Source: Candidatus Zhuqueibacterota bacterium
GTDB lineage: Bacteria; Zhuqueibacterota; Zhuqueibacteria; Thermofontimicrobiales; Thermofontimicrobiaceae
DNA: 64,000 nucleotides
Assembly: GCA_034506395.1 (NCBI GenBank)
Contig: JAPDPQ010000001.1
Coordinates: 4,435-68,434, forward strand
Direction: 5' to 3'
In this document: one piece after another, positions 1,511-52,842 of the stretch
Position numbering within the stretch: the stretch's first letter is position 1
Layout: the number at the start of each line of letters is the position of its first letter
The notes under the pieces: generated by a model
Database searches by the model: none
What the model was told of the DNA's origin: nothing
Seen by the model: only the letters and a program-made list of their open reading frames with translations
Program-made: the position numbers and the translations under genes

Positions 1511-1713
1511 ATCTTGAAAACTGATCATAGATATGAGGGAATCCTCCATCATAAACCAATTGCGAAAATAAAACTATCACTTGAGTAGATAAAGAAGTCA
1601 CCTCTATCTCATTCATAAAAGTGCCAACAGATGCCTGCAGTCGCAGGCGTGACATTCAGAATGTGGGGACTTATTTTTGGTAGAAGTATAAATTTGATTA
1701 AGAAGGACAGCTT

Positions 1714-2155
1714 TATGAGAGCAAGGATCAAACGAGTTGATGGGTTAAGTTTAATCGGGAAGGCGGATTCGAATCACTGGGTGCCAATGGACACAGTGGA
1801 GGATTTTGGCGGTCATAATGCGGGCACAAAACCGATGGAATTGGTGCTATTGGGGCTTGGCGGTTGTACAGCGATGGATGTGCTATCGATTATGACAAAA
1901 AAACGCGCGCCAATCCAAGATTTTGAAATGGAGCTTGAGGCTGAGCAAGCAGCAGATTATCCAAAAGTATTCACCAAAATCAAAATCACTTACATTTTTT
2001 ACGGGGACAAAGAGAAAATCAAGGGAAAAGATATTGAGCGGGCCATCGAACTCTCACGGGATGTGTATTGCCCCGTCTCCAATATGTTAAAACATTCGGT
2101 AGCCATTGAGCATCACTACGAAATTCGAGAGCCCAAAATTGGTACAGACCAATGA
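1714..2155 (+). CDS. OsmC/Ohr family peroxiredoxin-like protein
   Basis: PMELVLLGLGGCTAMDVLSIMTKKR...DVYCPVSNMLKH carries the two conserved OsmC cysteines. ~147 aa from the ATG at 1714. Confidence 0.8.
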
Positions 2156-2294
2156 CTGTTCTAATATGCGTCCCAGCAGCTACGGACCAATCATTTTTTC
2201 GAGTGAAACTTAGCTCTCGAGATTGAGCATCAACAAAATATGTCTTGTTTTTTTCATGAAAATTTCTATATTTCCGTTAACAAAAAACGGAAAT

Positions 2295-2870
2295 ATGGAT
2301 ATGGAATTGACAGAACAAGAATTGATCCGTCGTGCAAAGCAAGGAGATCGGGCAGCTCAGGCTAAAATTGTAAAAGACCATGAGAAAATGGTCTATAATT
2401 TGGGTCTAAAATTATTGGGCAACCCTGACCAAGCAGAGGGCGTTTTGCAAGAGACCTTCCTCAAGGTATTGCAAGCGCTTCCCAAATTCGAGGAAAAATC
2501 TCAGCTCTCGACTTGGATCTATCGCATCGCGACCAATCAGGCGCTCATGCGATTGCGTTCTCGCAAACGTCGTTTTATTTCAATTGAGGAAAATCCAGAA
2601 TTTGAGGATAAAGATTACACGACCTTCGCTCAATCGTTGGATGCAACCCCACTGGATGACGTGCTGAATCAGGAATTGCGAGAAAAGATGGATCGAGCGA
2701 TTGAGCAATTGCCAGATAATTATAAAACAGTGTTCGTGATGAAGGATATCGAAGGGATGGCATTGAAGGAAATTGCAGAAATTTTAGACCTGTCTTTGCC
2801 TGCAGTCAAATCCAATCTGCACCGCGCCAGAGTTACTCTTCGAAATAAATTGGCTGAAATGTGGAACTGA
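2295..2870 (+). CDS. RNA polymerase sigma-70 factor, ECF (sigma-24) subfamily
   Basis: Region 2 (AEGVLQETFLKVLQALPKF...STWIYRIATNQALMRLR) and region 4 (YKTVFVMKDIEGMALKEIAEILDLSLPAVKSNLHRAR) motifs are present. Confidence 0.85.
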   Translation: MDMELTEQELIRRAKQGDRAAQAKIVKDHEKMVYNLGLKLLGNPDQAEGVLQETFLKVLQALPKFEEKSQLSTWIYRIATNQALMRLRSRKRRFISIEENPEFEDKDYTTFAQSLDATPLDDVLNQELREKMDRAIEQLPDNYKTVFVMKDIEGMALKEIAEILDLSLPAVKSNLHRARVTLRNKLAEMWN

Positions 2871-3469: not shown

Positions 3470-4876
3470 ATGAGCACCCAGCCGGGAATTAAAATCCGAA
3501 AAATTGCTATCGGCGCCGACCATGCGGGATTTGAGCTCAAGGAGAAGCTCAAAAAATATCTTGCTGATCGAGGGCATCATCTTTTTGATTGTGGAACTTT
3601 CAGCACCGAATCCGTGGATTATCCGAAGATCGCCTTTCAGGTTGCACAATTGGTGAGCAGAGGCGAATATGAATTGGGAATCATGATCGACGGTGCGGGG
3701 ATTGGTTCGGCGATGGCAGCCAATAAGGTCCCCGGTATTCGAGCGGCTCTCTGTTACGATCTTTCGACCGCACGCAATAGTCGCGAGCACAACAACGCCA
3801 ATGTCCTCACTCTGGGGGGTGGGCTGATCGGTTTTGAATTGGCCAAACAGATCGTCGATACCTGGCTGGCATCAGAGTGCACAGTCGATCGACACCTGCG
3901 CCGAGTACAGATGATCCATGACATCGAACAAGGAAAATTCACTGTGAATCAGATAACGATGCCTCCAGGTCCCTCATCTGGGTTGGCAATTTCCGAGGAA
4001 GACGTTAAGAAAATCGTTTCGAGAGTCCAAACTTTATTACAGCAGCAGATGGGAACTGGTGCGATGTGGACATCCGCTAGTTGTCAAAATCCCACATGCA
4101 ATTCGTGCGGCCAATGTGCGAATAAGGCCCCTGATGCCGTTCGTCAATTTATTTCCATTGGTGCTGCGCGCATCTCTAATGCTCCAGGTGGCATCGGTGC
4201 CCCGCAGGACATCGCCAAATTTATTGACCACACGCTGCTCAAGCCAGAAGCTACGATTTCGGATATCGAACGGGTTTGTCAGGAGGCAGTGAAATATCAA
4301 TTTGCAGCGGTGTGTATTAATCCCTGCTATGTGAAATTGGCGCATGAATTGACACGTGGATCCAATGTAAAAGTTTGTAGCGTGGTTGGGTTTCCGCTCG
4401 GGGCAAGCATCACCGAGATTAAAGCCCTGGAGGCTCGGCGAGCGATTCGCGACGGGGCGAAGGAGATCGATATGGTAATCAACATCGGTGCACTCAAAAG
4501 CGACAATGATGAATTGGTGTTTCGGGACATCCGGACTGTGGTGGATGCTTGTGTGGATGGAAGCGCAATCTGCAAGGTTATCATTGAAGCAGCGCTCTTG
4601 ACCGATGAAGAGAAAGTGAGGGCGTGCGAGCTGGCAAAGCGGGCGCGAGCCCATTATGTGAAAACGTCGACGGGATTCGGCCCCGGCGGTGCGACTGCGC
4701 ATGACGTCGCGCTGATGCGACAGGTGGTGAGCGGCACACGAATGGGCGTGAAGGCTGCGGGCGGCATCCGATCGCTGGCAGACGCACAAAAGATGATCGA
4801 AGCGGGGGCCACTCGGATCGGCGCCAGCGCTGGCGTGAAAATCGTCCAAGAAGCAGCAAAGGTGGCAAATCCCTGA
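3470..4876 (+). CDS. Bifunctional fusion: ribose-5-phosphate isomerase B (RpiB/LacAB) N-terminal domain + deoxyribose-phosphate aldolase (DeoC/DERA) C-terminal domain, with a Cys-rich linker
   Basis: N-terminus [17 protein letters not shown]...[28 protein letters not shown] (RpiB). C-terminus [12 protein letters not shown]...[10 protein letters not shown]...VKTSTGFG...AGGIRS (DeoC, with the Schiff-base Lys region). The linker holds [20 protein letters not shown] and [12 protein letters not shown]. Confidence 0.85.
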
Positions 4877-7594: not shown

Positions 7595-7741
7595 GCCAAT
7601 CAAATCCAGCCATAAATTCATCGACACAATAGGTATTTTTCGCCGGTGGTTGAATGATCTTAATAGTTGATTAGAGACTTTCGTTCACATACAACAATTA
7701 TTTGGTTTATCATGCGATCACTTTAACGCTGGAGCGAACCC

Positions 7742-9187: not shown

Positions 9188-9188
9188 T

Positions 9189-11527: not shown

Positions 11528-11694
11528 AATCAGTCAGCGCTGACGACTTCATCCAATTGAATTAAAGCATCGACAAATTGCCGTGATCGCCAATTGCGCG
11601 AATTGACCCAATTAACCCAATTTTGCTATTCGCCAAATTAGCTTTATTCGTTTGAATTCGCTGTTTTATTCTATATCCCATCGCGCCAATCCAG

Positions 11695-31615: not shown

Positions 31616-31686
31616 CTGGGGCGGGAGGATTCGAACCCCCGATACAGGGACCAAAACCCTGTGCCTTGCCGCTTGGCCACGCCCCA
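31616..31686 (-). tRNA. tRNA-Gln (anticodon TTG), CCA not encoded
   Basis: The reverse complement reads TGGGGCGTGGCCAAGCGGCAAGGCACAGGGTTTTGGTCCCTGTATCGGGGGTTCGAATCCTCCCGCCCCAG. It has a 7-bp acceptor stem, a TTTTGGT anticodon loop and a GGTTCGAATCC T-arm, and is close to E. coli tRNA-Gln. Confidence 0.8.
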
Positions 31687-33082: not shown

Positions 33083-33352
33083 TATTATTCAATGTCACTA
33101 ATTTGTCAGAATAAGCTGTTACCCGAAAGCTATAAACAAGCATCTTCGCTGATAATAAACAAAAACTCCATTAAGATGGAGCTCACATTCGTTATGCAAT
33201 TCATTTCGAACGATCTTTTTATTCGGTCAAAAATTAAGAATTTTTTTTGAATTTGTCAACATTTATTTCTCTCTCCGTACATTTATCTTGCAATCGTTGC
33301 TTTGTTTTTGTATCTTATCACACCAATGAATGAAACTGGGGTGGAGCTGGAG

Positions 33353-34078
33353 ATGGAAAAGATATTTTTTATTTCGGATCTTCACATCGGTGCTGGTACC
33401 AGAAGCGAAGAAGAACTTAGGCTGAAGCGACTCTTTTCATTTTTTCATCATATCAATCAACCTGGCAATCAGCTTTTCATAGTTGGAGATCTGTTCGATT
33501 TCTGGTTTGAATATCGGCATGTGATCCCAAACCAATATTTCAATGTCCTTTATCGCATTCATCAGCTTATCGAGAGCCAGGTGACGGTTCATTTCCTCCC
33601 AGGAAATCATGATAGCTGGATTAAAGATTTCTTTGCCAAACATGTCAAAATGCGGGTTCACCCAGAAATGGCCGAGCTTGTAATCCAATCGAAAAAATTG
33701 TTATTGTTTCATGGGGATGGTATTTCCAAAAAGGATGTGGGGTATCGAATTCTAAAAAAGATCTTTCGCAATCCAGTAAACATATTTTTATATCGGTTGG
33801 TTCATCCTGATATTGGGATCCCGCTGGCAAAGCTAATGTCCCAGGGGAGTAGAAAGCATACCGCTGGGAAAATCCTTAATGATGAAGAAGACTACTGGAA
33901 CTTCGCCATGGAGAAATTTCAATTGGGTTTCGATTATGTGATCGTCGGTCATTCTCATAACCCATTATTCAGGAAATTCGGAGACCAAGCGTTTTTAAAT
34001 TTGGGGGACTGGATCAATCATTTTAGTTATGGGGAATTACATCGCGGTGAGTTAACTTTGCGCTATTGGAACAGTTGA
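33353..34078 (+). CDS. Calcineurin-like metallophosphoesterase, UDP-2,3-diacylglucosamine diphosphatase (LpxH)-like
   Basis: IFFISDLHIG...FIVGDLFDFWFEY...GNHD are LpxH-family motifs. Confidence 0.7.
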   Translation: MEKIFFISDLHIGAGTRSEEELRLKRLFSFFHHINQPGNQLFIVGDLFDFWFEYRHVIPNQYFNVLYRIHQLIESQVTVHFLPGNHDSWIKDFFAKHVKMRVHPEMAELVIQSKKLLLFHGDGISKKDVGYRILKKIFRNPVNIFLYRLVHPDIGIPLAKLMSQGSRKHTAGKILNDEEDYWNFAMEKFQLGFDYVIVGHSHNPLFRKFGDQAFLNLGDWINHFSYGELHRGELTLRYWNS

Positions 34079-34287
34079 TTTTTCCTTGTCGTTTAATTCA
34101 TGAATTTTGAGCATGCAAGGGAATAAATTTTCGCTGATTATAGCGAAACTTCAAATGAGAACATTTTTTTCTGGATTACCACTTCTGCCCGAGTGCCTTG
34201 ATTGGGCTTGTTAGGCTCGTGATAGATTCACTAGGCTCTTAAAGCGAAAGCACTGTTGAGGAGCAAATGCGGAGATATAGACGAATT

Positions 34288-36471
34288 ATGGAATTAAACA
34301 ATTCTTCAAGTCCATCACAACAATTCTCCACACTAAACTTTCAAAGCTGGAAAGTCAGGATTGCAATCATATTCGGACTGTTGATATTGTTTCTTATTAT
34401 TTATATCGCGATTTTGAGTCAGGACCTACCTTCGTTAAGTCAATTGGAGAACTACGATCCTGAGCTGGCGACCAAGCTTTACTCTCGGGATGGGGTGGTG
34501 ATTAAAGAGCTCTTTACCAAAAAGCGGATCTTCATCCCGTTGGAGCAAATTCCGGACAACATGATTAAAGCAGTGTTGGCCACAGAGGACCGCATTTTTT
34601 ACAAGCATTGGGGCATCAATGTAAAACGCTTTACTTACGTGATGTTGGTCAATCTCATTCATTTTCGTTATCAACAGGGAGCAAGCACCATTACCCAGCA
34701 ATTGGCCCGACAATTATATTTGAATTTGGAAAAGAAAATCTCGCGCAAGATCAAAGAGTGGATCACGGCCATCCAGATTGAACGGACCTATACGAAGAAT
34801 GAAATCTTGGAGATGTACCTGAACCAGATGAATTTTGGTCAGGGCAATTATGGGGTGCAAGCTGCAGCATTGGATTTCTTCGGGAAGAACGCACGAGATT
34901 TGACGCTCGAGGAATGTGCTTTGTTGGCTGGATTATTGCAGCGACCTGCCTCATACTACCCCTACCGCTATCCAGAGCGCGCCATGCAGCGGAGAAACGT
35001 GGTGTTGCATAATATGTTGGAGCAAAAATACATTACTCGGGAACAGTATGAGCAGGCTAAAGCCCAGCCGCTTCGATTGAAGCCTTATGATCCAAAGGCG
35101 ATCTACGGGATCGCTCCATATTTCACTGAATATGTACGCCAGCAACTGCAGGATCGTTATAGCATGGACCTTTATAAAGGGGGCTATTCAGTATATACTA
35201 CGTTAGATACCAGAGTGCAAGCAGCAGCCGAGCGGGCGATGCAAAACCAGCTCCACCAATTGCAGAAAAAATTTAACAAACGGCTCATTTCCAGCAATCG
35301 ATTTAAAAAATTGATTCCAGAAGAGGTTTTAGCCGAAATTCCTCTTGAGCGGCTTAAGAGCAATGAACGACTACTGGACTCGCTTTTAACAGAATATGTG
35401 CCAATTCAAGCGGCGCTGATCGCCCTTGATCCGCGGGATGGACAGATCTTAGCAATGATCGGAGGACGAGACTTTGAAAAATACAAGTTCAATCGTGCCC
35501 TTCAAGCAAAAAGGCAGCCAGGATCAACTTTTAAACCGATTGTTTACACGGCTGCGATTGATAATGGATATCCGCCATGTTACGAACTTTTGAACCAGCC
35601 AGTGGTGCTATATCTTCCAAACGGTGATCGATGGGCACCACGCAATTATGACAATTCCCAGGGCGGGCCAACTACGTTGCGTGAAGCCTTACGACGTTCG
35701 CTAAATCTGGTGACCGCTCGACTGGTCCAAGAACTTGTTCCACCGAAAACGGTAGCTGATTATGCAGAAAAATTGGGCATTACCACCCCTGTTCCGCCCT
35801 ATGAGGCCGTTGCCCTTGGCTCGGCGGATGTAATTCTGGCCGAAATGACAGCTGCCTTTGGCGTTTTTGCCAATCAGGGAATTCTCACCAAACCCTTTGG
35901 CGTCTTGAGAGTCGAGGATAAATACGGCAATAAATTGGAAGAAAATAAGCCCGAAATCAAAGAGGTGCTTCGTAAGGAAACAGCCTATATCATGGCGGAT
36001 ATGCTCAGAACCGTTGTGGATCATGGCACTGGGGTCGCAGCCCGGACGACCTTTCATTTCTATCGACCCGCAGGTGGTAAAACTGGGACAACGAATGGTT
36101 TCACCGATGCGTGGTTCATTGGCTTTACCCCACAAATCGTTGCTGGAGTTTGGGTCGGCTTCGATGACCCAGCGCTGTCCCTCGGAGAAGGACAAGCTGG
36201 CGCTGTCGTTGCGCTGCCGATCTGGGCGCCGTTCATGAAAACCGCCCACGATACCCTCGAGCTCCCAGTACTCGATTTCGAAATGCCCCCTGGGGTGGTC
36301 CGTTTGGAAATCTGCAAAGAAACAAAAAAATTGGCGTCCGAATATTGTCCTGAAATCATCTCCGAGCTATTCGAAACCCGGTTTGCCCCGACCGAGCATT
36401 GCGATGTTCATACGGGATTCCATGACAGGAAAAAATCCCAGGAAAACATCCGCAAACGCATTCGCTTCTGA
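34288..36471 (+). CDS. Class A penicillin-binding protein (PBP1A; glycosyltransferase + transpeptidase)
   Basis: N-terminal TM. GT51 motifs (EDRIFYKHWGIN, STITQQLAR) and transpeptidase motifs (STFKP, SLN, KTGTT). Confidence 0.85.
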   Translation: MELNNSSSPSQQFSTLNFQSWKVRIAIIFGLLILFLIIYIAILSQDLPSLSQLENYDPELATKLYSRDGVVIKELFTKKRIFIPLEQIPDNMIKAVLATEDRIFYKHWGINVKRFTYVMLVNLIHFRYQQGASTITQQLARQLYLNLEKKISRKIKEWITAIQIERTYTKNEILEMYLNQMNFGQGNYGVQAAALDFFGKNARDLTLEECALLAGLLQRPASYYPYRYPERAMQRRNVVLHNMLEQKYITREQYEQAKAQPLRLKPYDPKAIYGIAPYFTEYVRQQLQDRYSMDLYKGGYSVYTTLDTRVQAAAERAMQNQLHQLQKKFNKRLISSNRFKKLIPEEVLAEIPLERLKSNERLLDSLLTEYVPIQAALIALDPRDGQILAMIGGRDFEKYKFNRALQAKRQPGSTFKPIVYTAAIDNGYPPCYELLNQPVVLYLPNGDRWAPRNYDNSQGGPTTLREALRRSLNLVTARLVQELVPPKTVADYAEKLGITTPVPPYEAVALGSADVILAEMTAAFGVFANQGILTKPFGVLRVEDKYGNKLEENKPEIKEVLRKETAYIMADMLRTVVDHGTGVAARTTFHFYRPAGGKTGTTNGFTDAWFIGFTPQIVAGVWVGFDDPALSLGEGQAGAVVALPIWAPFMKTAHDTLELPVLDFEMPPGVVRLEICKETKKLASEYCPEIISELFETRFAPTEHCDVHTGFHDRKKSQENIRKRIRF

Positions 36472-36933: not shown

Positions 36934-38229
36934 TTAGTGAATGGAGCCCAATATCAATCTTGGGACCTGACATGGTGCTTCATCAATTTCAATTGCCGAT
37001 CGTAAAGCGTGTTCAATTTGCTCAGCATTCATCACTTTTGAGTGATAGATTTCAGCCAAAGGCTCACCGCGTTCCACGCGATCACCGACTTTATGGCACA
37101 AAACGATCCCCGCGGTGGGATCAATGGGATCTCCAATTTTTGCCCGACCAGCGCCGAGTTCCATGGACAACAAGCCGATCTTCAGCGCATTTATCTCGTG
37201 AACATAACCTGATTTGGTGCTGAGCACGGTTTCATGATATTGGCTGAAGGGATATCGAGCAGGATTTTCAACGACTGAAATATCACCTCCCTGGGCAGTT
37301 ACCATCTCAATAAATTTATTATAGGCAGCTCCATTGGCTAATAAAAATTGCAATTGATCAGAATGATGAATTGGCTTTCCCGCCAATCGCAGCATCTCTG
37401 CCGTGAGCGCCAAAGTAATTTCAACTAAGTCATTTGGGCCACCACCATGCAATGTATCAATTGCTTCTTTAACCTCCAGCCAATTCCCAACCGCATAACC
37501 TAAAGGCTGATCCATGGCCGTCATCATGGCCGTAGTGGGCAGGCCGAAGCTTTTTGCAATCGAGATGAATGTCTCGGCTAATTGGTTCGCTCGGTCAAAT
37601 GAGCTAAAAAATGCTCCACGACCAGTTTTAACATCCAACACCAGGGCCTTTGCACCTTCTGCGATCTTTTTGCTCAATATGCTGGCAACAACTAAAGGGA
37701 TCGATGGCACAGTTCCTGTGCGATCGCGTAACGCATAAATCTTTTTGTCCGCCGGGACAATCTCATCGGTTTGCCCAATCATGGCAAGGCCGATTTTTTC
37801 AACTTGTTGAACGAACTCTGTCAAGCTCAACTGGGTTCGAAAGCCGGGGATCGATTCTAATTTGTCCAATGTCCCACCAGAATGGCCCAATCCACGACCA
37901 GACATCATGGGAACTGCTACCCCTGCCGCGGCGGCCAATGGGGCCAAGACCAATGACACCTTATCACCGACCCCTCCAGTGCTGTGCTTATCGACAGGCA
38001 TCCGATCTAAATGGCTGAAGTCTACCGTCCGGCCCGATTGAACCATGAGCTTGGTCAATGCTTGAGTCTCTTCTATGCTCATGCCCTGAAAATAAATGGC
38101 CATCAATAAAGCGGCCATTTGGTAGTCTGGGACCAAACCAGCGACATAGCCATCGATTATTGATTTCAACTCTGCCTCTGAAAGGTGAGATCCGTCTCGC
38201 TTTTTCACAATCAATTGTTCAATATTCAT
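36934..38229 (-). CDS. deoA: Thymidine / pyrimidine-nucleoside phosphorylase
   Basis: IIVKKRDG..LS..E..SII..GYV...KHSTGGVGDKVSLVLAPLAAA...MMSGRGLGHSGGTLDKLESIPGF. Confidence 0.9.
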   Translation of the reverse strand: MNIEQLIVKKRDGSHLSEAELKSIIDGYVAGLVPDYQMAALLMAIYFQGMSIEETQALTKLMVQSGRTVDFSHLDRMPVDKHSTGGVGDKVSLVLAPLAAAAGVAVPMMSGRGLGHSGGTLDKLESIPGFRTQLSLTEFVQQVEKIGLAMIGQTDEIVPADKKIYALRDRTGTVPSIPLVVASILSKKIAEGAKALVLDVKTGRGAFFSSFDRANQLAETFISIAKSFGLPTTAMMTAMDQPLGYAVGNWLEVKEAIDTLHGGGPNDLVEITLALTAEMLRLAGKPIHHSDQLQFLLANGAAYNKFIEMVTAQGGDISVVENPARYPFSQYHETVLSTKSGYVHEINALKIGLLSMELGAGRAKIGDPIDPTAGIVLCHKVGDRVERGEPLAEIYHSKVMNAEQIEHALRSAIEIDEAPCQVPRLILGSIH

Positions 38230-38319
38230 CGTTCCTCTTCCTTTTTCCAAAAAACAAAGAAGCAATCAAACAACGATTGCTTCTTTAATTTTGTTTTCAT
38301 TCTATAGCTCTATTTCGTG

Positions 38320-39681
38320 TCAACTAAGAGCGCTCAATTGCTTAATCTCCTCAACAAATTGATAAGCCAGTGCATTGGCTTGGTCCATGGTTTTCGCCTC
38401 AGCGTAGATTCGGATAATTGGCTCTGTATTGGACGGTCGAATTTGCACCCAGCGATCGGGCCATAGGATCTTCAAACCGTCCGTCAGATCGAGACGCTGG
38501 TTATTGTATTTATTGGTCATCGTCTTCAATAACTCGCCAATATTCACATCGGCCAATTCAATGCGACTCTTAGCGATCACATATTGCGGCAAAGATCGTT
38601 GCAATTCGCCAATAGAGCCCCCAAATTCAGCCAATTGCTGCAAAGTTAAGGCAATTCCCACTGGTGCATCTCGGCCTAAATGAAGCTCCGGCAAGATAAC
38701 TCCTCCGTTTCCTTCCCCACCGATCACCGCCTTCACTTCCTTCATCTTTTTTGCGACATGAATTTCCCCAACTTTGGTTCGAAACACCTCAGCGCCATAT
38801 TTGGCAGCAATTTCGTCGATCGCCTGGGTGACCGAGACATTGACCGCCACTGGCCCGTGTCTTTTTTGAAGCACATAATTCACAGCTAACGCCAAAGTAT
38901 ACTCCTCGCCCAGGGGATTGCCGTGCTCATCGACAATGGCGAGCCGATCGACATCCGGATCCACTGCAAAGCCCAGATCGGCACCAGTGCGCTTCACTGT
39001 CTGGCATAATTCTTTGAGATTCTCTGGCAATGGTTCTGGTGGATGCGAAAATAACCCAGTTGGATCCTCATTGATAAATATCACATCGCATCCCAGGCGT
39101 TGCAATAATTGGGGTAAAATGGTCCCACCTGCTCCATTCACACAATCTACGACAACCCTAAATTTCCGGGCAGCTATCTTCTCTGGTGAAATCAAATCTA
39201 ATCGCAAAATGGCATCGATATGATGCCGAATAGCGGTGTTATTAAGTTCGATCTTTCCAATTTGATCCCAAGGGACAAAGCGAAATTCTGCTTCGTCGGC
39301 AAGCTGAATGACTTTCTTGCCTTGTATCTCATCGAGGAACATGCCAGAGGCATCGATCAATTTCAACGCGTTCCATTCGATTGGATTATGGCTGGCTGTG
39401 ATGGCAATGCCTCCACGCGCCTTAAAATGCTCCACCGCCAATTCTACCGTTGGCGTTGGGCAAATGCCGATATCAATTACATCGCATCCCATGGCCGTCA
39501 GGCCAGAGAGCACCGCATGCTTGACCATGGGTCCAGTGATTCGGGAGTCTCTTCCTACCACCACCTTTCCTCCACCCAAATAAGCCCCGAATGCCTGGGC
39601 GTATCGGAGGACCACCTCTGGGGTTAACCCATCTCCAACCACGCCTCTTATTCCCGAGATGCTAACCATTAATTTCGCCAC
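38320..39681 (-). CDS. Alpha-D-phosphohexomutase family protein (PGM/PMM/GlmM-like); candidate phosphopentomutase by context
   Basis: SGIRGVVG...GIAITASHNP (phosphoserine loop)...FAVDPDVDRLAIVDEHGN (metal loop)...GGEGNGG. Confidence 0.8.
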   Translation of the reverse strand: MAKLMVSISGIRGVVGDGLTPEVVLRYAQAFGAYLGGGKVVVGRDSRITGPMVKHAVLSGLTAMGCDVIDIGICPTPTVELAVEHFKARGGIAITASHNPIEWNALKLIDASGMFLDEIQGKKVIQLADEAEFRFVPWDQIGKIELNNTAIRHHIDAILRLDLISPEKIAARKFRVVVDCVNGAGGTILPQLLQRLGCDVIFINEDPTGLFSHPPEPLPENLKELCQTVKRTGADLGFAVDPDVDRLAIVDEHGNPLGEEYTLALAVNYVLQKRHGPVAVNVSVTQAIDEIAAKYGAEVFRTKVGEIHVAKKMKEVKAVIGGEGNGGVILPELHLGRDAPVGIALTLQQLAEFGGSIGELQRSLPQYVIAKSRIELADVNIGELLKTMTNKYNNQRLDLTDGLKILWPDRWVQIRPSNTEPIIRIYAEAKTMDQANALAYQFVEEIKQLSALS

Positions 39682-39720
39682 TTCAACCTCCGTTGCAGTT
39701 TGTTATCAGCCAGTGCCATT

Positions 39721-40296
39721 TTAGAACCGATTATAATGAACAATATCGCTTAATCTTCTTTTAGGGACATGCAGAACACCTTGATCGTCCTTCCAATATT
39801 TAATTGAATCTTTCACTTCTTCCACTACTGGCGACTCATCGGGATAGCCCAATGCCACTACCGAGTCGATTTGATAATGCTGGGGGATGTCAAAAACCGA
39901 TCTCAATTGATTCCGATCGATCGATCCCAGCCAGCAAGATCCTACATTTTCTTCCAGGGCTGTCAGGATCATGTTTTCGATAGCCGCGGCTGCGTCCACG
40001 CTGCCGTTCCCCGATTTGATCTGAGTATTGACCAACACCACAATATACGCCACTGGACGTTTTCCTTCAGGGGGATTCCCCGCAGGAGCAATATAACCTG
40101 CCCATTTCAAAGCAGGAAATACCTTGTTCACCATCTCCGGATCATCGACAATAATGAATTCCAATGGCTGCAGATTTGCCCCCGATGGCGCTAATCGTCC
40201 TGCGTTGACTAATTTTTCCAATAGCTCCAAAGAAAGCGGTTCTTGTTTAAACCGGCGAATCGTTCGACGCTTCAGAATTATCTCATAAACGCTCAC
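39721..40296 (-). CDS. Nitroreductase-family protein
   Basis: LKRRTIRRFKQEPLSLELLEKLVNAGRLAPSGANLQPLEFIIV. Confidence 0.8.
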   Translation of the reverse strand: MSVYEIILKRRTIRRFKQEPLSLELLEKLVNAGRLAPSGANLQPLEFIIVDDPEMVNKVFPALKWAGYIAPAGNPPEGKRPVAYIVVLVNTQIKSGNGSVDAAAAIENMILTALEENVGSCWLGSIDRNQLRSVFDIPQHYQIDSVVALGYPDESPVVEEVKDSIKYWKDDQGVLHVPKRRLSDIVHYNRF

Positions 40297-40739
40297 TTTT
40301 AACTCCTATTGATTGGCAAAAATTAGTAAATGATATAAACGAATATCAACGCTATCTGAGACGGGCCAAAATCAATTGCAAGGATAATTCAACCCGGATC
40401 AGTATTCTCCGAGCCGCCTTTCTTTTTTGCCGGATATAAGCATAGATTTTCGCCTGGATTCCTGCATTCGCAGAAATGACATCATGTTATCTGAATTCGA
40501 TTTTTATATTAGAAACAAATTAGTGTCTGAACGAAAACTTACCTCTCTGTCATTTCGATTGCAGGGCGAAATCTTCAAAAGAATCTCAAAGTAGTAAGAT
40601 TCCTCCCTTCGTTCGCAATGACATTTTTAATTCAAATTTAATGGTTTTCATTCAGGCATTGATTAATTTGACATTGAAAATTTTGCCGCAGCAAAATATA
40701 TTGAAAATTTGGTCGAAAATCAATAGTAAATTTGAACCT

Positions 40740-41669
40740 CTATTCTGAGTGAAACCGATCGATTAATAGCCCATGCCGCACTCCCCTATCGCTAATGATC
40801 ACTGACTTGCTCTGCATCTGTTTCATTATCGCCGAGACAATCATCCCACCAGCCAGAATCACATCCGCCCGATCAGCAGGCAGTCCAGGCATCCGCTTGC
40901 GTTCGGCAATGGTTTTTGATTTCAATGCGCTCACTAGCGTAGTGACGTCGTGATATGAAAGCTGCAATCCATGAATCAGATTTGCTTGATAACGACGCAA
41001 TTGGTGCTGCATTGCGCCCAGGGTGGTCATCGTTGCACCGACACCCACCAGAACGCTGATTGGCCCGGACCATGGAATCGCTTGGAATGCTGCTTTGATA
41101 GATCGATCAGCCAATTGAACTTCCTCATCGGTCACAGGATCTGAGATCAAAATTTGCTCCGTCAACCGCACCACACCGATATTCAAGCTGATCTTACCTA
41201 ATAGTTGCCGATCCTGGCTGAGAATGAATTCGGTGCTCCCGCCGCCCACATCGAAGATAAGCCACCGTGCTTTCGGGACAGGCAAACTGGAAATAACCGC
41301 CAGCCAAGAGAGGCGCGCTTCCTCTTCACCATCGATGATTTGGATGTTCAAATTAGCTTCTCTGCGCAACCGCTCAACGAAATCTTGTGCATTAGCAGCA
41401 GTGCGCAGCGCCATCGTACCGACTGCCAGAATGTGATCCACTTGTTGCTCTCGGGCAATGCCCAGAAACTTCTGAATTGCAGCGATGCTGCGTTCCATTG
41501 CAGCAGTATTGAGAAGACCGCTGCTATGCAATCCTTGCCCCAATCGTGTTACCTGAGAGGTATCCAGCACCGTTTCCCAATCTCCGTGGGCATTCTTTTC
41601 GGCAATCAGAAATTTTATCGCGTTGGTCCCAATATCGAGAACCGCTGCTCTTCGGATCTCCAAAGCCAT
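40740..41669 (-). CDS. Ppx/GppA-family phosphatase (exopolyphosphatase / pppGpp phosphohydrolase)
   Basis: AAVLDIGTNAIKFLIAE...IDGEEEARLSWLAV...FDVGGGSTEF are ASKHA-fold motifs. Confidence 0.8.
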   Translation of the reverse strand: MALEIRRAAVLDIGTNAIKFLIAEKNAHGDWETVLDTSQVTRLGQGLHSSGLLNTAAMERSIAAIQKFLGIAREQQVDHILAVGTMALRTAANAQDFVERLRREANLNIQIIDGEEEARLSWLAVISSLPVPKARWLIFDVGGGSTEFILSQDRQLLGKISLNIGVVRLTEQILISDPVTDEEVQLADRSIKAAFQAIPWSGPISVLVGVGATMTTLGAMQHQLRRYQANLIHGLQLSYHDVTTLVSALKSKTIAERKRMPGLPADRADVILAGGMIVSAIMKQMQSKSVIISDRGVRHGLLIDRFHSE

Positions 41670-46752: not shown

Positions 46753-47697
46753 TTAGATCATGTTTAGGGTTTTGAGGAGAAAGATGCCCAAGGAGATAGT
46801 AATGATCGATCCAAGGGTGGTCATGACGATGATGTTGCCGGCCAATTCGCTATTGCAGCCCATTGCTTCCGCCATAACAAAGCTGACGATGGCGGAGGGG
46901 GTGGCGAACAAGAGAAATACCACCCCCAGGTCCTGACCAGAAAGACCCAATCGAAAGCCCAGCACTGCGATGGTTGCAGGGATAATGACGATTTTCAAAA
47001 TGGTAGCGACCGCCGCCAATCGCGCATCTTTTTTGATTTGCTCAAAATCCAATGAACCGCCGATCCCGAGCAGCGCCAGGGGCAATGTAATAGCCGCCAG
47101 GCTATTGATGGTTGTGATCAAAAACTGAGGTAACTCGATGTCGAAATACGAAAATGGCAGGGCGATGATGGTCGCAAGGATAAGTGGGTTGGTGAAAATT
47201 TCGGACAACATCTGCTGGAGCGTCAACTGTTTGTCGGCCCGGATCGGTACCGTCAATGCGATGATTGCCAGAATGTTATAGAGTGGCATGACGAACGCCA
47301 ACAAAATGGCCGCCTTACTCAGCGCTGCCGGACCAAACATGTTAGCGATCAGGGCAAAACCGATAATTGCAAAATTGCTGCGAAAACTGCCTTGAATAAA
47401 TGAAGCGCGATCCCGACCATTATTTGACAACCCCAGAGAGATCAGCCAGCTCAATGCAAAAAAAAAGAGCACACTGAGATAAACAAACAGGATCAGCTTT
47501 AGGCTGAAAGTCATTTTCAAATCGGTGCGCGAAAGGCTCTCGAATACCAGTGCTGGGGCGGCAACGGTGAACACGATTTTCGAAGAGATGCTCACAAAAT
47601 TGCCATTGATTAACCCCTTTTTCTTCAATCCATATCCCAAAAAAATAATCAAGAATACCGGGGCCACCCCATTGAATGAGAAAATCAGATTTTGCAT
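46753..47697 (-). CDS. AEC-family (auxin-efflux-carrier-like) transporter
   Basis: ~10 TM helices. Shows the N- and C-terminal AEC repeats (VAPVFLIIFLGYGLKKKGLI...). Confidence 0.75.
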   Translation of the reverse strand: MQNLIFSFNGVAPVFLIIFLGYGLKKKGLINGNFVSISSKIVFTVAAPALVFESLSRTDLKMTFSLKLILFVYLSVLFFFALSWLISLGLSNNGRDRASFIQGSFRSNFAIIGFALIANMFGPAALSKAAILLAFVMPLYNILAIIALTVPIRADKQLTLQQMLSEIFTNPLILATIIALPFSYFDIELPQFLITTINSLAAITLPLALLGIGGSLDFEQIKKDARLAAVATILKIVIIPATIAVLGFRLGLSGQDLGVVFLLFATPSAIVSFVMAEAMGCNSELAGNIIVMTTLGSIITISLGIFLLKTLNMI

Positions 47698-47753
47698 CGA
47701 AGGTTCTCTATTTCTCTCAAGGATTTTCATCGCGACAGATCGGTTGAAAATCC

Positions 47754-48833
47754 TCATTGTAAAATATTCTGTTTTTGCTCCAAATAATAAATATAATTCT
47801 CGAAAGAGACATCGGAGGGCACACGATGATCGACCATCGGGATATAGCCTCCCTGGTCTACCAGCGGAGCAATTCGCTCCAGCTCCCGATCGATGGCTTC
47901 TTTGCCTTTGATCAATGCTGTTTTATCCACACCGCCCATTAATAATATCGCATTGCCATATCGCTGTCGCAGCAGAACCGGATCGGTATGGAGCGCCTCG
48001 ATCGGAAACATGCAATTGATCCCTGCCTCCAACCAACCAGGCACTAACTCATATATACAGCCATCGCAGTCAAGCACATTAATATCGACGCCATATTTTT
48101 GCAGCGCTGCCGTAACCCGTTTATAGCGTGGCACCATCAGTTCCTGAAACAGCTTGGGCGAAATCAACGGCCCGCGATTATAACACATATCCTCCCACCA
48201 CCAGGCCATATCGACTCGAATTCCTGGGAGACTTTGCTCGATCAGCTGCAGTGTCAATTGGGTCAGATGCTCCATCATCTCTTCCACCCAGTCGCGATCA
48301 GTCATGATCGCAATAGACAGGTTTTCCATCCCCATCCAGTTTCGGAGAACGCCATAAAGGGAGCCGGCATCGAATCGGATTGGCATCCCGATCGCATGAG
48401 CTTCCACCACGGCTGCTCGAACATCTCCGATTCGCTCAGCGAAATTCGGATCGAGATGCTCAGTTCGATAGCGTTCCCAATCTTCCCGGGTCTCAATACC
48501 GAATTTCAGATAGCGAGGGATGGTCTCACCAAATTTTGGTGACTGACAGATGATCCCTTCTTCATTTTGATAGACCCTGTAGTCGGCTCCTTCCTCTAAT
48601 ACACGGTAGTCGAACCGCGGACAAAGGCCATTTTTAGCAGGTAGCCAGGGGATAATCTCTACGCCCTCCAACCCCAAATATCGTTCGACATCTTGGTTCG
48701 TTTTCACATGAACTGGCAGACCTTGCGTATGCCATTTCTCGATCGTCTCATCCCAATAGCCGAATTCCATATTAGGAACGCGATCTGGCTTTTGCCAGTG
48801 CATCACTCTATAAAAACGTTCTTGGGTCGTCAT
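47754..48833 (-). CDS. Uroporphyrinogen-decarboxylase (URO-D)-like family protein
   Basis: 359 aa. PDRVPNMEFGYWDETIEKW... and ...DCDGCIYELVPGWLEAGINCMFPIE are typical of the URO-D/MtaA-like TIM-barrel family. Confidence 0.7.
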   Translation of the reverse strand: MTTQERFYRVMHWQKPDRVPNMEFGYWDETIEKWHTQGLPVHVKTNQDVERYLGLEGVEIIPWLPAKNGLCPRFDYRVLEEGADYRVYQNEEGIICQSPKFGETIPRYLKFGIETREDWERYRTEHLDPNFAERIGDVRAAVVEAHAIGMPIRFDAGSLYGVLRNWMGMENLSIAIMTDRDWVEEMMEHLTQLTLQLIEQSLPGIRVDMAWWWEDMCYNRGPLISPKLFQELMVPRYKRVTAALQKYGVDINVLDCDGCIYELVPGWLEAGINCMFPIEALHTDPVLLRQRYGNAILLMGGVDKTALIKGKEAIDRELERIAPLVDQGGYIPMVDHRVPSDVSFENYIYYLEQKQNILQ

Positions 48834-49224: not shown

Positions 49225-51588
49225 GTGACGCCGAGAGTTGAGAAATTAAGAAGACAAAGCCTGGAGACTCCGACATCGATTACAGCAGAGCGAGCGGTTT
49301 TAATCACCGAATTCTATCGATCGCATGATGCATTGACTATCTCAGCGCCGATGCGCCGGGCATTGGCGTTCAAATATCTGATGGAACATAAAGCCGTTTG
49401 CATCAACGATGGTGAGTTGATCGTTGGCGAGCGCGGACCGGCTCCTCGGTCAACCCCAACATTCCCAGAGATCTGCTGCCATACGATTGAGGAGCTTGAG
49501 ATCCTCAATTCGAGGGAAAAAGTGAGCTACGCGGTCTCTGAAGAAACCAAGCGGATTTATCGCGAGCAAATTATTCCCTATTGGAAGGGAAAGACTATTC
49601 GGGAAAAGATCTTTGAGGAGATGACCGATGAGTGGAAAGCGGCCTATCGCGCTGGGATTTTTACCGAGTTCATGGAGCAACGCGCTCCTGGTCATACAGC
49701 ATTAGATGACAAAATTTACTTGAAAGGCTTTTTGGGATTTAAGAAAGAGATCGAAGAGCAACTGAGTCGATTGGATTATCTAAACGATCCGGAAGCGTAC
49801 GAGAAGCAGGAACAGCTCAAAGCCATGGCCATTGCTGCGGATGCCATCATTCGCTATGCCGAACGACATGCCGAACTCGCCCAACAAATGGCCCGCAAAG
49901 AATCTGATCCAGTCAGGAAACGCGAACTTGAGCAAATTGCAGAAATCTGCGCCTATGTCCCAGCCAATCCGCCACGAACCTTCTGGGAGGCGCTGCAGGC
50001 GTACTGGTTCACCCATGTTGGGGTGATTTCGGAATTAAACACCTGGGACGCCATCTGCCCTGGCCGATTCGATCAGCATTTTTATCCGTTTTACAAAAAG
50101 GACATTGAGTCTGGTCTATTGTCTCGAGAGGCCGCTAAGGAGCTTCTGCAATGCTTCTGGATCAAATTCAACAATCAGCCCGCCCCTCCAAAGGTGGGCG
50201 TCACTGCTCAGGAGAGCGGGACTTATAACGATTTTGCGCTGATTTCGCTGGCCGGACAAACGCGCGATGGAAAAGACGGTGCCAACGAGCTCTCCTATTT
50301 ATGCCTCGATGTATTGGAGGAATTGCGGCTGGTGCAGCCCCACTGTTGCGTTCAATTGAGCCAGCAAAATCCCGATCGCCTGCTGAAGCGTGCGCTCGAG
50401 GTCAATCGCACTGGTCTGGGTCAACCCTCGATCTTCAATCATGACGCCGTGGTCCAGGAGCTTATTCGCCAGGGCAAATCTATCGAAGACGCGAGGACCG
50501 GCGGCACCAGTGGGTGTGTGGAGACCGGGGCATTGGGCAAGGAAAATTACAATCTCACCGGCTACTTTAATATGATGAAAGTGCTGGAAATCACGCTCCA
50601 CAATGGCGTCGATCCCCGTACTGGAGAAAAGATCGGGATCGAAACCGGGGATCCCACTCGATTTGAAAATTTTGAGCAATTATTCGAGGCTTATAAAAGA
50701 CAGCTTCGGCACTTCATCGACATTAAGATCCGAGGCAATAACATCATCGAAAAAATCTATGCGCAATATATGCCCACGCCGTTTCTTTCATTGTTGATTA
50801 GCGATTGCATTCAACGTGGTAAAGATTATCACAATGGCGGAGCGCGCTACAATACAAGCTACATCCAGGGCGTTGGTTTGGGCAGCATTACGGACGCCAT
50901 GAGCTCATTGAAATATCATGTTTACGATCATCGCAAGCTCACCATGGAGCAGATGCTCAGCGTCCTTAAAGATAATTATGAGGGCCATGAAAGGATTCGG
51001 CAGATGATGCGCTATCAGACACCCAAGTACGGCAATGACGATGATTATGCCGATGAGATTATGAAGCGGGTATTTGAAGCCTACTTTGAAGCGATCGATG
51101 GCAGGAAAAATATGAAAGGAGGAACTTATCGCATCAACTTGCTCCCGACGACGGTTCATGTCTACTTTGGCTCAGTGGTGGGAGCAACTCCCGATGGTCG
51201 AAAGGCAGGAGACGTACTCTCTGAAGGGGTGTCTCCAGTTCAGGGGGCGGATCGAAACGGTCCAACAGCAGTGATTAAATCGGTAGCCAAAATCGATCAT
51301 TTACGCACGGGCGGCACTTTGCTGAATCAGAAATTTTCACCTTCGCTACTGAGCAGCGATAACGGACTCGCTGGACTCGCCCATTTGGTACGATCTTATT
51401 TTAAAATGAACGGACATCACATCCAATTTAATGTGGTGACCGCTGCTACGCTCCGAGCGGCTCAGCAGCACCCAGAGAAGTATCGCGACCTGATCGTTCG
51501 GGTGGCAGGATATAGCGATTATTTCTGCAACTTGAATAAAGGCCTGCAGGATGAGATCATCGCCAGGACCGAACATCAAAGCTTTTAG
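49225..51588 (+). CDS. Glycyl radical enzyme, PFL2 / dehydratase-eliminase type (Cys-x-Glu active site)
   Basis: 787 aa. C-terminal glycyl radical motif RVAGYSDYF. Active-site loop GGTSGCVETG. GTG start with an AGGAGCG SD. Confidence 0.9.
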   Translation: MTPRVEKLRRQSLETPTSITAERAVLITEFYRSHDALTISAPMRRALAFKYLMEHKAVCINDGELIVGERGPAPRSTPTFPEICCHTIEELEILNSREKVSYAVSEETKRIYREQIIPYWKGKTIREKIFEEMTDEWKAAYRAGIFTEFMEQRAPGHTALDDKIYLKGFLGFKKEIEEQLSRLDYLNDPEAYEKQEQLKAMAIAADAIIRYAERHAELAQQMARKESDPVRKRELEQIAEICAYVPANPPRTFWEALQAYWFTHVGVISELNTWDAICPGRFDQHFYPFYKKDIESGLLSREAAKELLQCFWIKFNNQPAPPKVGVTAQESGTYNDFALISLAGQTRDGKDGANELSYLCLDVLEELRLVQPHCCVQLSQQNPDRLLKRALEVNRTGLGQPSIFNHDAVVQELIRQGKSIEDARTGGTSGCVETGALGKENYNLTGYFNMMKVLEITLHNGVDPRTGEKIGIETGDPTRFENFEQLFEAYKRQLRHFIDIKIRGNNIIEKIYAQYMPTPFLSLLISDCIQRGKDYHNGGARYNTSYIQGVGLGSITDAMSSLKYHVYDHRKLTMEQMLSVLKDNYEGHERIRQMMRYQTPKYGNDDDYADEIMKRVFEAYFEAIDGRKNMKGGTYRINLLPTTVHVYFGSVVGATPDGRKAGDVLSEGVSPVQGADRNGPTAVIKSVAKIDHLRTGGTLLNQKFSPSLLSSDNGLAGLAHLVRSYFKMNGHHIQFNVVTAATLRAAQQHPEKYRDLIVRVAGYSDYFCNLNKGLQDEIIARTEHQSF

Positions 51589-51741: not shown

Positions 51742-52842
51742 TCATTGGTAATAGACCACGATGGCCTTGATCAGCCCAAACAATTTTTTATGAAGTTCCC
51801 ATGGGATACCATCGACTGACATAGCTGGGTGGCCAAGTTTGCCGTCAACGGCGATTCCAGTTTGAAAATAGCTCTCGATGAGTTTCGTTTCCGCAGCTTC
51901 ATCGAAAAGCTCGAGAAACTCATCGGCTCGATTCAGACAGAGATATAACCCAGCGATCAGTGCATAAGCTGCCCAATTGGACACTCCGGCCACGATAGTC
52001 GCATCGGCTGCCACGCGACAGGCAAATTTGCCCGCGTGGGCTGAGGCGATGTTGCACGCAATAACACGCCATGGAATGGAACCCATGCCGATTTCATTTC
52101 CTCCATCACCAATGCCAATCGTAAAAATCGGTTTCGAGGCGATCGTTTTGTTCTCGAATAACAGATGAATGGGGGCTGTGTCCTGACCAACCGGAAGGCC
52201 GTTCATCGTGAAGGGCTCGCCTTGCGATTCGCCCGGCCCTTGGGAAAGAAACCTGTTGAAATTGGATTCATCTGATAAATTTTCTTGCTTGGAGAACGAT
52301 TCGAGGGTATGGCTGGGTCCCACCCGTTCGATCGCGATCAAACAGCTCAGACGGTCATGGTTCAAGAAGAAATTTCGAACTTCTTCCATCATCATGTTGT
52401 TGTTGGCATATCGAATATCTTGTGCAGCCACATGATCGGACCGCGACCATTGAGAAGGGAATTCGATCAATTCACAATGATCCAGTTGATTGGCATAAAG
52501 GTGAACTCCCTGTGCCAGCAAGGGGAGGCCATAACGATCACTGATGAGCAAGACAGGGTATCCCAGCCGATTCAATCCTCGGGCCAGAAATAATGCACCA
52601 GGTGGGCCATCGTTCTCTGGCGCTGGTGGCTGTACATTCGGAATAAAAAAACCTGTCACAATGCCCACCTCATTGCCAGGATGCTCGATCAGAAATTGGA
52701 TCGCTTTCGCCAAATGACCTTGGGTCCTGGTACAGAGATTATCCTCTGGGATTCGGTGAATTCCGCGGCACCCCACATCGGTTTGAATGAGCCATTCCAA
52801 TTGCGCAAGCTGCTGCATTTTTATTTGGTCAGAAATTTTCAT
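51742..52842 (-). CDS. Conserved hypothetical protein (366 aa), possibly DUF4392-like
   Basis: ORF with conserved-looking blocks (GIVTGFFIP, FTIGIGDGGNEIGMG). Family assignment not secure. Confidence 0.45.
   Translation of the reverse strand: MKISDQIKMQQLAQLEWLIQTDVGCRGIHRIPEDNLCTRTQGHLAKAIQFLIEHPGNEVGIVTGFFIPNVQPPAPENDGPPGALFLARGLNRLGYPVLLISDRYGLPLLAQGVHLYANQLDHCELIEFPSQWSRSDHVAAQDIRYANNNMMMEEVRNFFLNHDRLSCLIAIERVGPSHTLESFSKQENLSDESNFNRFLSQGPGESQGEPFTMNGLPVGQDTAPIHLLFENKTIASKPIFTIGIGDGGNEIGMGSIPWRVIACNIASAHAGKFACRVAADATIVAGVSNWAAYALIAGLYLCLNRADEFLELFDEAAETKLIESYFQTGIAVDGKLGHPAMSVDGIPWELHKKLFGLIKAIVVYYQ

Follow-up and report, generated by a model that had tools for sequence, protein, structure and literature searches.

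The subject of this analysis is a 64,000-nt stretch of contig JAPDPQ010000001.1 (referred to below as the window) from a Candidatus Zhuqueibacterota bacterium, a member of the uncultured candidate division KSB1 (Zhuqueibacterota), and within it a row of four minus-strand genes. These encode, in the order in which they are read, a Ppx/GppA-family phosphatase (40740..41669; 309 aa, PF02541 at 229 bits), a nitroreductase-family flavoprotein (39721..40296; PF00881), an archaeal-type alpha-D-phosphohexomutase of the TIGR03990 family (38320..39681; 453 aa, four PGM_PMM Pfam domains) and a pyrimidine-nucleoside phosphorylase (PyNP/Pdp; ORF 36934-38265, likely 36934..38229). The original prediction for this DNA had called the last of these deoA, and had seen in the row a tightly packed operon that could plausibly feed deoxyribose-5-phosphate (dR5P) to a microcompartment built around deoxyribose-5-phosphate aldolase (DERA). 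Genes were called as open reading frames (ORFs) and families were assigned by Pfam and NCBIfam profile cut-offs; the four ORFs have exactly the limits and order that had been predicted, and all of them score above their Pfam cut-offs. Alignment with homologues places the most likely start of the phosphorylase at the ATG at 38229, which gives a protein of 431 aa. An NCBI protein from a KSB1 metagenome-assembled genome (MAG) has the same sequence as the mutase (100% identity). The row is flanked by a DPP-IV peptidase gene upstream of Ppx and by a convergent PBP1a gene downstream of the phosphorylase.

Only part of the row can be called tightly packed. Nitroreductase and mutase are separated by 39 nt, and the mutase stop lies 90 nt from the phosphorylase ATG, very much as predicted, whereas 443 nt separate Ppx from the nitroreductase. 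Moreover, a promoter-like motif (TTGATT-17-TATATT, 40695..40723, minus strand) lies directly past the Ppx stop, and a terminator-like hairpin (38255..38287, minus strand; 14-bp stem, 5-nt loop and T-run) occupies the gap between mutase and PyNP, both calls being sequence pattern matches. The promoter-like motif is conserved in four relatives; about 45 nt around it are kept in L002, L073 and L148 (L-numbered labels denote contigs or loci of relatives used for comparison), and the remainder of the gap is not. Given the 443-nt gap and the conserved motif, Ppx is probably a separate transcription unit, a neighbour outside the module, and the motif is the probable start of the nitroreductase-mutase transcript. 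The approximately 400 nt between the motif and the nitroreductase start (40297-40694, minus strand) contain no ORF of at least 80 aa and no Rfam match, and show no conservation relative to L002 or L073; in L148 the whole gap measures just 127 nt.

The hairpin folds with a free energy of -20.3 kcal/mol (z = -5.6; none of 200 shuffled sequences folds equally well) and leaves about 26 nt to the phosphorylase ATG. Its sequence is kept in L002, L073 and L065, and in part in L001; L003 has a different hairpin, and L004 and L066, where mutase and PyNP are spaced by 2 and 19 nt, have none. It is possibly a leaky terminator or attenuator, and our reading is that nitroreductase and mutase would form one unit with its own promoter, with the phosphorylase reached by read-through past this element. 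The hairpin is also kept at the level of sequence, beyond structure, across loci whose proteins share 71-87% identity and, since it is a perfect inverted repeat, it may be a protein-binding operator instead of, or besides, a terminator. No riboswitch or other known RNA was found in the intergenic regions by Rfam at the gathering threshold, which yields just a tRNA at 31616-31686, and a permissive Rfam scan of the hairpin gave sub-threshold generic stem-loop matches only.

The phosphorylase has all three domains of its family (PF02885, PF00591 and PF07831, i.e. Glycos_trans_3N, Glycos_transf_3 and PYNP_C) and passes TIGR02644, the general model for PyNP and thymidine phosphorylase (548.2 bits, cut-off 409). 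It fails the model for E. coli-type thymidine phosphorylase DeoA (TIGR02643; 433.3 bits, cut-off 570.7) and, narrowly, the Bacillus-type PyNP equivalog NF004747 (515 vs 559). Against solved structures, PyNPs score 375-432 bits, the top relative being B. stearothermophilus PyNP (1BRW, 432), and the E. coli and human thymidine phosphorylases 313-327 bits (327 for E. coli). On these scores the predicted deoA is best named PyNP/Pdp, being nearer to PyNP than to the E. coli thymidine phosphorylase. Phosphorylases of the PyNP family release both ribose-1-phosphate (R1P) and deoxyribose-1-phosphate (dR1P); both products are therefore expected here, which matches the RpiB-DERA fusion described below.

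As for the mutase, its four domains pass at 130 (PF02878), 101 (PF02879), 71 (PF02880) and 36.5 bits (PF00408), and it has the motifs TASHNP at residue 95, DPDVDR at 241 and RPSNTEP at 415 together with the sugar loop GGEGNGG. With the phosphoserine loop T/S-x-S-H-N-P, the metal loop DxDxDR and the phosphate-binding loop R-x-S-x-T-E-P all present, it is an alpha-D-phosphohexomutase (COG1109). Since it has PGM_PMM domains only, we rejected an identity as DeoB (COG1015, alkaline-phosphatase superfamily). It passes TIGR03990, the 'Arch_GlmM' model (558.4 bits, cut-off 439), which is why the identical protein is named 'phosphoglucosamine mutase' at NCBI, and it fails the bacterial GlmM model TIGR01455 (232.7 bits), so that an identity as bacterial GlmM was likewise rejected (233 vs 447.55 bits). 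Its closest solved relatives are PH0923 (340 bits) and TK1108 (328 bits; 41-42% identity), followed by TK1777 (200 bits, 31%); solved bacterial GlmM structures reach 123-153 bits. The original prediction would have yielded to a mutase clustering firmly with GlmM plus a deoB elsewhere in the genome; what we find is a clear failure on TIGR01455, and a deoB in only 3 of 36 published genomes of the phylum, so that the prediction is not refuted on this count.

A pass on TIGR03990 does not reveal the substrate. When the sequences of PDB 9IX8, 9DU5, 1WQA and 2F7L were run against the model, all four archaeal enzymes exceeded 439 bits (TK1777, 488; TK1108, 588; PH0923, 599; ST0242, 545). TK1777 is a proven phosphopentomutase without significant hexomutase activity (PMC11641776). 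Since the model thus accepts a phosphopentomutase as well as phosphoglucomutase/phosphomannomutase (PGM/PMM) enzymes, membership cannot fix what the enzyme acts on. This is an annotation problem, because the model, an 'equivalog', gives the name GlmM to thousands of bacterial proteins; automated GlmM names within this family are unreliable.

The analogy that the original prediction drew with archaeal phosphopentomutases fares badly as well. The authors of TK1777 proposed that a change in motif III, from GEEN to AAEP, underlies pentose specificity (PMC11641776). At the aligned position 9IX8 has AAEP and the window mutase keeps the hexose-type GEGN; PH0923 and TK1108 have GGEENGG, and Methanobacterium members GGEPSGT. 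TK1108, a PGM/PMM enzyme with GEEN like PH0923, has a reported low activity on pentose phosphates. In a neighbour-joining tree the mutase falls in a bacterial clade, and TK1777 groups with archaeal sequences. A TK1777-type identity was consequently rejected (no AAEP, 31% identity, no clustering with TK1777).

The second component of the system, the DERA microcompartment (BMC) locus on which the original prediction leaned, is real and occupies 3470-12588 on the plus strand. It opens with an RpiB-DERA fusion (3470..4876; PF02502 + PF01791), the signature enzyme of the SPU3 subtype, followed by a CsoS1D-like BMC-T (5064-5693), a BMC-H (6063-6383), a BMC-P (6613-6912), a GNAT acetyltransferase (7028-7594), an aldehyde dehydrogenase (7742-9187), a second BMC-T (9189-9812), two further BMC-P genes (9799-10089 and 10320-10592), a class II aldolase (10841-11527) and an ARMT1-like phosphatase (11695-12588). 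The SPU3 set of DERA (fused to RpiB), aldehyde dehydrogenase, BMC-H, BMC-T and a BMC-P triplet is complete at 3470-10592; both the subtype and the fusion are described in PMC11585597. Gene order is matched in L147 and L145. In the window, the phosphorylase/mutase cluster lies neither inside nor adjoining the shell locus; it is 24 kb from the end of it, the intervening DNA being of a housekeeping nature (Lgt, NAD synthase, TsaD, ribosomal proteins, SSB, H+-PPase, PRPP synthetase and others).

Several side observations concern this locus. The GNAT gene, between BMC-P and aldehyde dehydrogenase, is found in the same place in L145, L147 and L150 and as a fragment in L146; SPU3 lacks a PTAC, and a conserved acyl-CoA-using GNAT at that position may be relevant. 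The ARMT1-like 'damage-control' sugar-phosphate phosphatase right after the class II aldolase is also seen in L147. In L145 the SPU3 locus, syntenic in other respects, is interrupted midway (7679-7864) by two small ORFs and a gene for a HicA toxin. Finally, the SPU locus of L146 (CP070762.1, about 713-734 kb) appears truncated: unrelated TonB-receptor genes come after RpiB-DERA, BMC-T, BMC-H, BMC-P and a GNAT fragment of 119 aa, and there is no aldehyde dehydrogenase within 10 kb.

What ties the two loci together is gene context in relatives. Relatives of the mutase were compared in 61 loci taken from species-representative genomes and in 80 metagenomic loci, plus targeted contigs, all of which we searched with the window proteins. 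PyNP follows the mutase in 13 distinct contigs, the window included, from two sister clades, with identities of 56-87% for the mutase and 50-82% for PyNP. In 10 of these the two are directly adjacent, at 2-133 nt (window, L001, L002/L064, L003, L004, L065, L066, L073, L149 and L150). In two others, L010 and L069, a stand-alone DeoC sits between them in a tightly packed row like that of a deo operon. In L068, mutase and PyNP are separated by a 968-nt spacer with a GC content of 36% and no ORF of at least 100 aa; the related L149 has 36 nt there. No DeoC remnant was detected in the L068 spacer (4187-5154), which may be an insertion. The surroundings of the pair vary, with at least four flanking contexts: nitroreductase/Ppx, a CitMHS transporter, OsmC with an extracytoplasmic function (ECF) sigma factor, and a histidine kinase with a sigma-54 regulator. 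The core appears to be a two-gene nucleoside-catabolic module of PyNP and mutase, to which a nitroreductase gene is attached in KSB1.

One may consider instead that all four genes form a functional unit in which, for example, Ppx provides phosphate for phosphorolysis and the nitroreductase processes the released pyrimidine base. It is true that Ppx, nitroreductase and mutase stand in an unbroken row in the window, L002, L073 and L148, that six KSB1 contigs (L001, L002, L065, L066, L073 and L148) have a nitroreductase immediately before the mutase, and that the nitroreductase has a weak likeness to RutE-type malonic semialdehyde reductase (34 bits, cut-off 152). However, this protein fits no characterised subfamily (it reaches the cut-off of no NCBIfam model, and its top solved relative, 2r01, is a function-unassigned structure), and it is missing from that site in L003, L004, L010, L068, L149 and L150, with Ppx missing as well from L149, L068, L150 and L010. 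Ppx itself, which fails TIGR03706 (247 bits, cut-off 307), is set apart by its 443-nt distance from the nitroreductase and by the conserved promoter-like motif past its stop. Clades without a neighbouring PyNP (L006, L007, L011, L070 and L130) also have a homologue of it at 2-3 kb from the mutase, so that Ppx seems tied to the mutase or the region rather than to nucleoside catabolism. The nitroreductase is specific to KSB1 at this position, and we place neither it nor Ppx in the pathway; a four-gene unit is improbable.

In some relatives the pair comes close to the SPU3 genes themselves. The mutase is within 5 kb of an SPU3 locus in four contigs (L068, L149, L150 and L145/L148), in three of them together with PyNP. 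The most complete arrangement is that of L149, where a kinase, a sigma-54 regulator, mutase, PyNP, a small ORF, a SorC/DeoR-type regulator, RpiB-DERA, BMC-T, BMC-H, BMC-P and aldehyde dehydrogenase all lie on one strand; L068 has the same layout. In L150, OsmC, the ECF sigma factor, mutase and PyNP are followed by PBP1a and a metallophosphoesterase, which lie on the opposite strand, and these in turn by RpiB-DERA and the shell genes; the pair is 3 kb from the SPU locus. L145/L148 has the SPU locus, RsgA, Ppx, nitroreductase and mutase, and the contig ends 41 nt past the mutase, before a PyNP could be seen. The place of the whole SPU locus of L150 is taken in L004 by a stand-alone DeoC, which the metallophosphoesterase/PBP1a pair again separates from mutase and PyNP. 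As a side observation, L150 also encodes an MTAP-like nucleoside phosphorylase (PNP_UDP_1) and a radical-SAM protein just upstream of OsmC (6779-8574); no homologue of this phosphorylase was found in the window.

Two pairs of these neighbours serve as synteny anchors in the window, namely the metallophosphoesterase and PBP1a genes (33302..36471, plus strand), which form part of the comparison with L150 and L004, and the OsmC and ECF sigma factor genes (1631..2870, plus strand), whose orthologues in L150 and L004 are 58-63% identical. OsmC and the sigma factor precede the mutase in L150 and L004, and precede RpiB-DERA in the window and L147. With the anchor shifted in this way, the window, with its 24-kb separation, looks like a rearranged form of a locus that had once been contiguous. 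On one contig of the nearest relative, 44.5 kb lie between the mutase-PyNP and SPU loci.

The feeder route of the original prediction is thus supported by context (the 13 contigs, DeoC between the two genes in L010 and L069, and the SPU-adjacent pairs of L068, L149 and L150), although the four-gene operon in which it had been framed is not. In the pathway that we propose, PyNP would phosphorolyse thymidine, deoxyuridine or uridine to the free base and (deoxy)ribose-1-phosphate, and the adjacent archaeal-type mutase would shift the phosphate to C5. The resulting dR5P and ribose-5-phosphate (R5P) would serve the RpiB-DERA fusion of the SPU3 microcompartment as substrates. DERA would then yield glyceraldehyde-3-phosphate and acetaldehyde, the latter being trapped as acetyl-CoA by the encapsulated aldehyde dehydrogenase. 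Neither PyNP nor the mutase has an N- or C-terminal extension relative to the family models; we therefore infer that both are cytosolic, in line with the published view that dR5P passes into the shell. The mutase would in addition supply glucosamine-1-phosphate (GlcN-1-P) for peptidoglycan and lipopolysaccharide, and the hairpin would let the mutase be constitutive while PyNP depends on read-through. The identities of the genes, their family placement, the motifs and the conserved neighbourhoods are direct observations, whereas the substrates, the direction of flux, the dual role and the function of the hairpin are our interpretation of them. Gene context suggests the feeder role and the catabolic direction of flux, and the presence of the pair beside SPU3 genes in relatives suggests that nucleosides are a fuel of SPU3.

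The second role of the mutase is suggested by genome-wide gene presence, for which we relied on published KEGG Orthology tables. The bacterial glmM (K03431) and glmU (K04042) are found in none of 44 KSB1 MAGs (PMC9012183, supplementary file 7), while glmS is found in about 41 of the 44; pmm-pgm (K15778) is mostly single-copy in these MAGs, few of which have pgm or manB, whereas most have deoC and roughly half have pdp (PMC9012183). In a second set, deoB (K01839) is present in 3 of 36 Zhuqueibacterota genomes, K15778 occurs in one or two copies, and ribokinase-family genes are common (PMC11683472, supplementary file 2). In the window, too, there is no canonical deoB, as had been predicted: no unassigned ORF has the size of DeoB (about 400 aa), and no DeoB-like gene is seen among the ORFs of at least 300 aa, all of which belong to other families except one of 313 aa without a Pfam match. 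The PBP1a gene in the window indicates that the organism makes peptidoglycan. Since there is no bacterial glmM and usually one phosphohexomutase, the mutase is probably also the GlmM of the cell. We therefore lean, by a little over an even chance, towards what seems the most parsimonious view, a generalist mutase that would provide cell-wall precursors and, in KSB1 and the sister clade, also convert (deoxy)ribose-1-phosphate to the 5-phosphate for DERA and RpiB. A more ambitious form of this proposal has the mutase of KSB1 and Calditrichota-like bacteria as sole GlcN-6-P mutase and non-orthologous replacement of DeoB, forming with PyNP a dedicated entry by which pyrimidine (deoxy)nucleosides would be the physiological feedstock of SPU3, with the joint supply of R5P and dR5P explaining the fusion and with the hairpin as an attenuator between constitutive mutase and regulated PyNP expression; this we advance tentatively, as somewhat short of even odds.

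A number of observations weigh against a role in nucleoside catabolism, and most of them can be read in favour of a housekeeping alternative, namely that the mutase is only an 'archaeal-type' GlmM of the FCB group (perhaps a PGM/PMM), that its adjacency to PyNP is an inherited accident, and that dR5P comes from a deoxyribokinase, nucleotide breakdown or an unrecognised mutase. As noted above, the enzyme passes TIGR03990 and is called phosphoglucosamine mutase at NCBI, glmM is missing from all 44 KSB1 MAGs despite glmS so that the role needs filling, and ribokinase-family genes are common in the phylum. Motif III is of the hexose type. The motifs TASHNPxxWNAL, DPD(V/S)DR, GGEGNGGVI and R-x-SNTEPI are shared by bacterial mutases with and without a linked PyNP, including about 78 Bacteroidales orthologues that carry all four in housekeeping contexts. 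We looked for an active-site signature of the PyNP-linked mutases and rejected it, as a single alignment position (125) discriminates them; there is thus no sequence sign of a functional shift, and the activity of the bacterial members of the clade is a prediction throughout. In the window, the terminator-like hairpin stands between mutase and phosphorylase and would uncouple them. The neighbour-joining tree places the PyNP-linked mutases in one monophyletic group (KSB1 proper and a sister clade, at 56-60% identity), so that the adjacency arose once and its persistence may be due in part to inheritance rather than selection. Within that group, L067/L133 lacks the adjacency; an ECF sigma/anti-sigma pair lies downstream of its mutase. 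Viewed from the SPU loci, moreover, linkage is not the rule: about 3 Mb separate the two loci in the complete genome CP070762.1, and no PyNP or mutase was found within 10 kb of the SPU3 loci L146, L147, L151 and L152, the last two being more distant ones. In addition, the published tables come from incomplete MAGs, and the equation of K15778 with the window mutase is presumed.

Outside the linked group, there is no linkage to PyNP in the next clade (L006, L007, L011, L038, L070 and L130), in an Ignavibacteria sequence or in some 78 Bacteroidales/Porphyromonas orthologues. No informative neighbours, such as glmS or glmU, were seen beside these unlinked orthologues; they neighbour ABC2, FlgD_ig, DUF4390 and Ppx in the B3 clade, and DHH, DUF4827, an RNA methyltransferase and a lytic transglycosylase in Porphyromonas. 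A purely housekeeping mutase would nevertheless leave several things unexplained: the DeoC gene between mutase and PyNP in L010 and L069, the mutase at the head of a mutase-PyNP-regulator-RpiB-DERA-shell array in L149 and L068, and the fact that the pair has outlasted at least four changes of flank and a divergence of PyNP down to 50% identity. PyNP and DERA without a mutase would also make an incomplete pathway, and deoB is missing from 33 of the 36 genomes. We regard this alternative as unlikely, at roughly one chance in four.

The opposite alternative is a dedicated phosphopentomutase, a DeoB analogue that would have become specific for (d)R1P in the KSB1/Calditrichota clade, in parallel with TK1777 of Thermococcus, with GlmM activity contributed by another protein. 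The deo-like gene order, the precedent of TK1777 within the same model family (488 bits on TIGR03990) and the two copies of K15778 in some Zhuqueibacterota genomes all speak for it. Yet the sequence bears no signature of specialisation, GEGN being shared with the unlinked orthologues and one position discriminating; the mutase stands apart from TK1777 in the tree, and in many KSB1 genomes there is just one phosphohexomutase, with bacterial glmM absent. This makes a dedicated enzyme a poor prospect, and the generalist mutase remains the explanation that we prefer.

Elsewhere in the window, a glycyl-radical enzyme of 787 aa with PFL-like and Gly_radical domains (49225-51588, plus strand) is flanked by URO-D-like, Mem_trans and GLUCM-like_C genes (46753-48833 and 51742-52842, both minus strand); no activating enzyme was seen adjoining it. 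An S8 peptidase of 1510 aa (52917-57449, minus strand) has a faint Por (type IX) secretion tail. Proteins with such tails recur near related loci, consistent with a detritus-degrading organism of the FCB group.

SPU loci are among the commonest BMC types, with more than 280 loci in 26 phyla (Sutter 2021), so that a feedstock for one of the commonest uncharacterised bacterial organelles would be a testable answer of some breadth. The linked PyNP-mutase pair predicts that pyrimidine nucleosides enter by phosphorolysis and a non-DeoB mutase, and it names two cytosolic enzymes for pathway reconstitution or engineering. If the dual role is true, one promiscuous mutase would connect nucleoside catabolism with synthesis of the cell wall in a large phylum of uncultured bacteria.

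The system that resembles the window most is the published SPU3 microcompartment (Axen 2014; Sutter 2021; Dwyer, Sutter & Kerfeld 2024), with which it shares RpiB-DERA, aldehyde dehydrogenase, BMC-H, BMC-T, three BMC-P, a class II aldolase and the lack of a PTAC. DNA-derived dR5P is already the presumed SPU substrate in the literature, and the organelle for DNA-derived deoxyribose that the original prediction offered is therefore not a new idea. Unlike the published descriptions, here PyNP and a COG1109 mutase adjoin SPU3 loci in several KSB1/Calditrichota-like contigs. A locus-associated nucleoside phosphorylase or phosphohexomutase-family mutase is not mentioned in the main texts of Axen 2014, Sutter 2021 and Dwyer 2024 or in the supplements of Sutter 2021, although the tables of Dwyer 2024 may list them; Dwyer 2024 names deoB only, as a generic upstream step. 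As far as the literature examined shows, two things would be new: the physical linkage of PyNP and COG1109 mutase genes to each other and to SPU3 loci, and the implied replacement of DeoB by an enzyme with hexomutase motifs in bacteria that also lack a bacterial GlmM.

The classical deo operons (E. coli deoCABD and B. subtilis dra-nupC-pdp) likewise encode the phosphorylase, mutase and DERA steps together; all three stand in a row in L010 and L069, and L149 and L068 have a SorC/DeoR-type regulator with PF04198, the family to which B. subtilis DeoR also belongs. They differ in that here the mutase is an alpha-D-phosphohexomutase and not DeoB, the DERA gene is fused to that of RpiB and stands among shell-protein genes, and the window has no nucleoside transporter and no DeoD. 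With TK1777 (PDB 9IX8) and TK1108/PH0923 the mutase shares the COG1109/TIGR03990 family and motifs I and II; TK1777 reportedly acts together with a DERA in Thermococcus. Unlike TK1777, the window enzyme has GEGN, close to the GEEN of hexomutases, and belongs to a separate bacterial clade with TASHNPxxWNAL and DPDVDR whose activity is predicted. The archaeal-type GlmM, with Methanococcus maripaludis MMP1680 as founding member, is comparable in passing TIGR03990 and in the pattern of glmS present and bacterial glmM absent, and differs in motif III (GGEPSGT in Methanobacterium vs GGEGNGG in the window). Bacterial members of TIGR03990 were named on account of genomes with just this pattern, for a GlcN-1-P role. 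The nearest proposal in its logic is that for SPU-type compartments of Hodarchaeales (bioRxiv 2025, PMC12747264), in which a nucleotidase, a uridine phosphorylase and a phosphodeoxyribomutase lead in turn to dR5P, which enters the compartment. That proposal is based on genome-wide gene presence in archaea, whereas here the genes are physically linked, and in bacteria.

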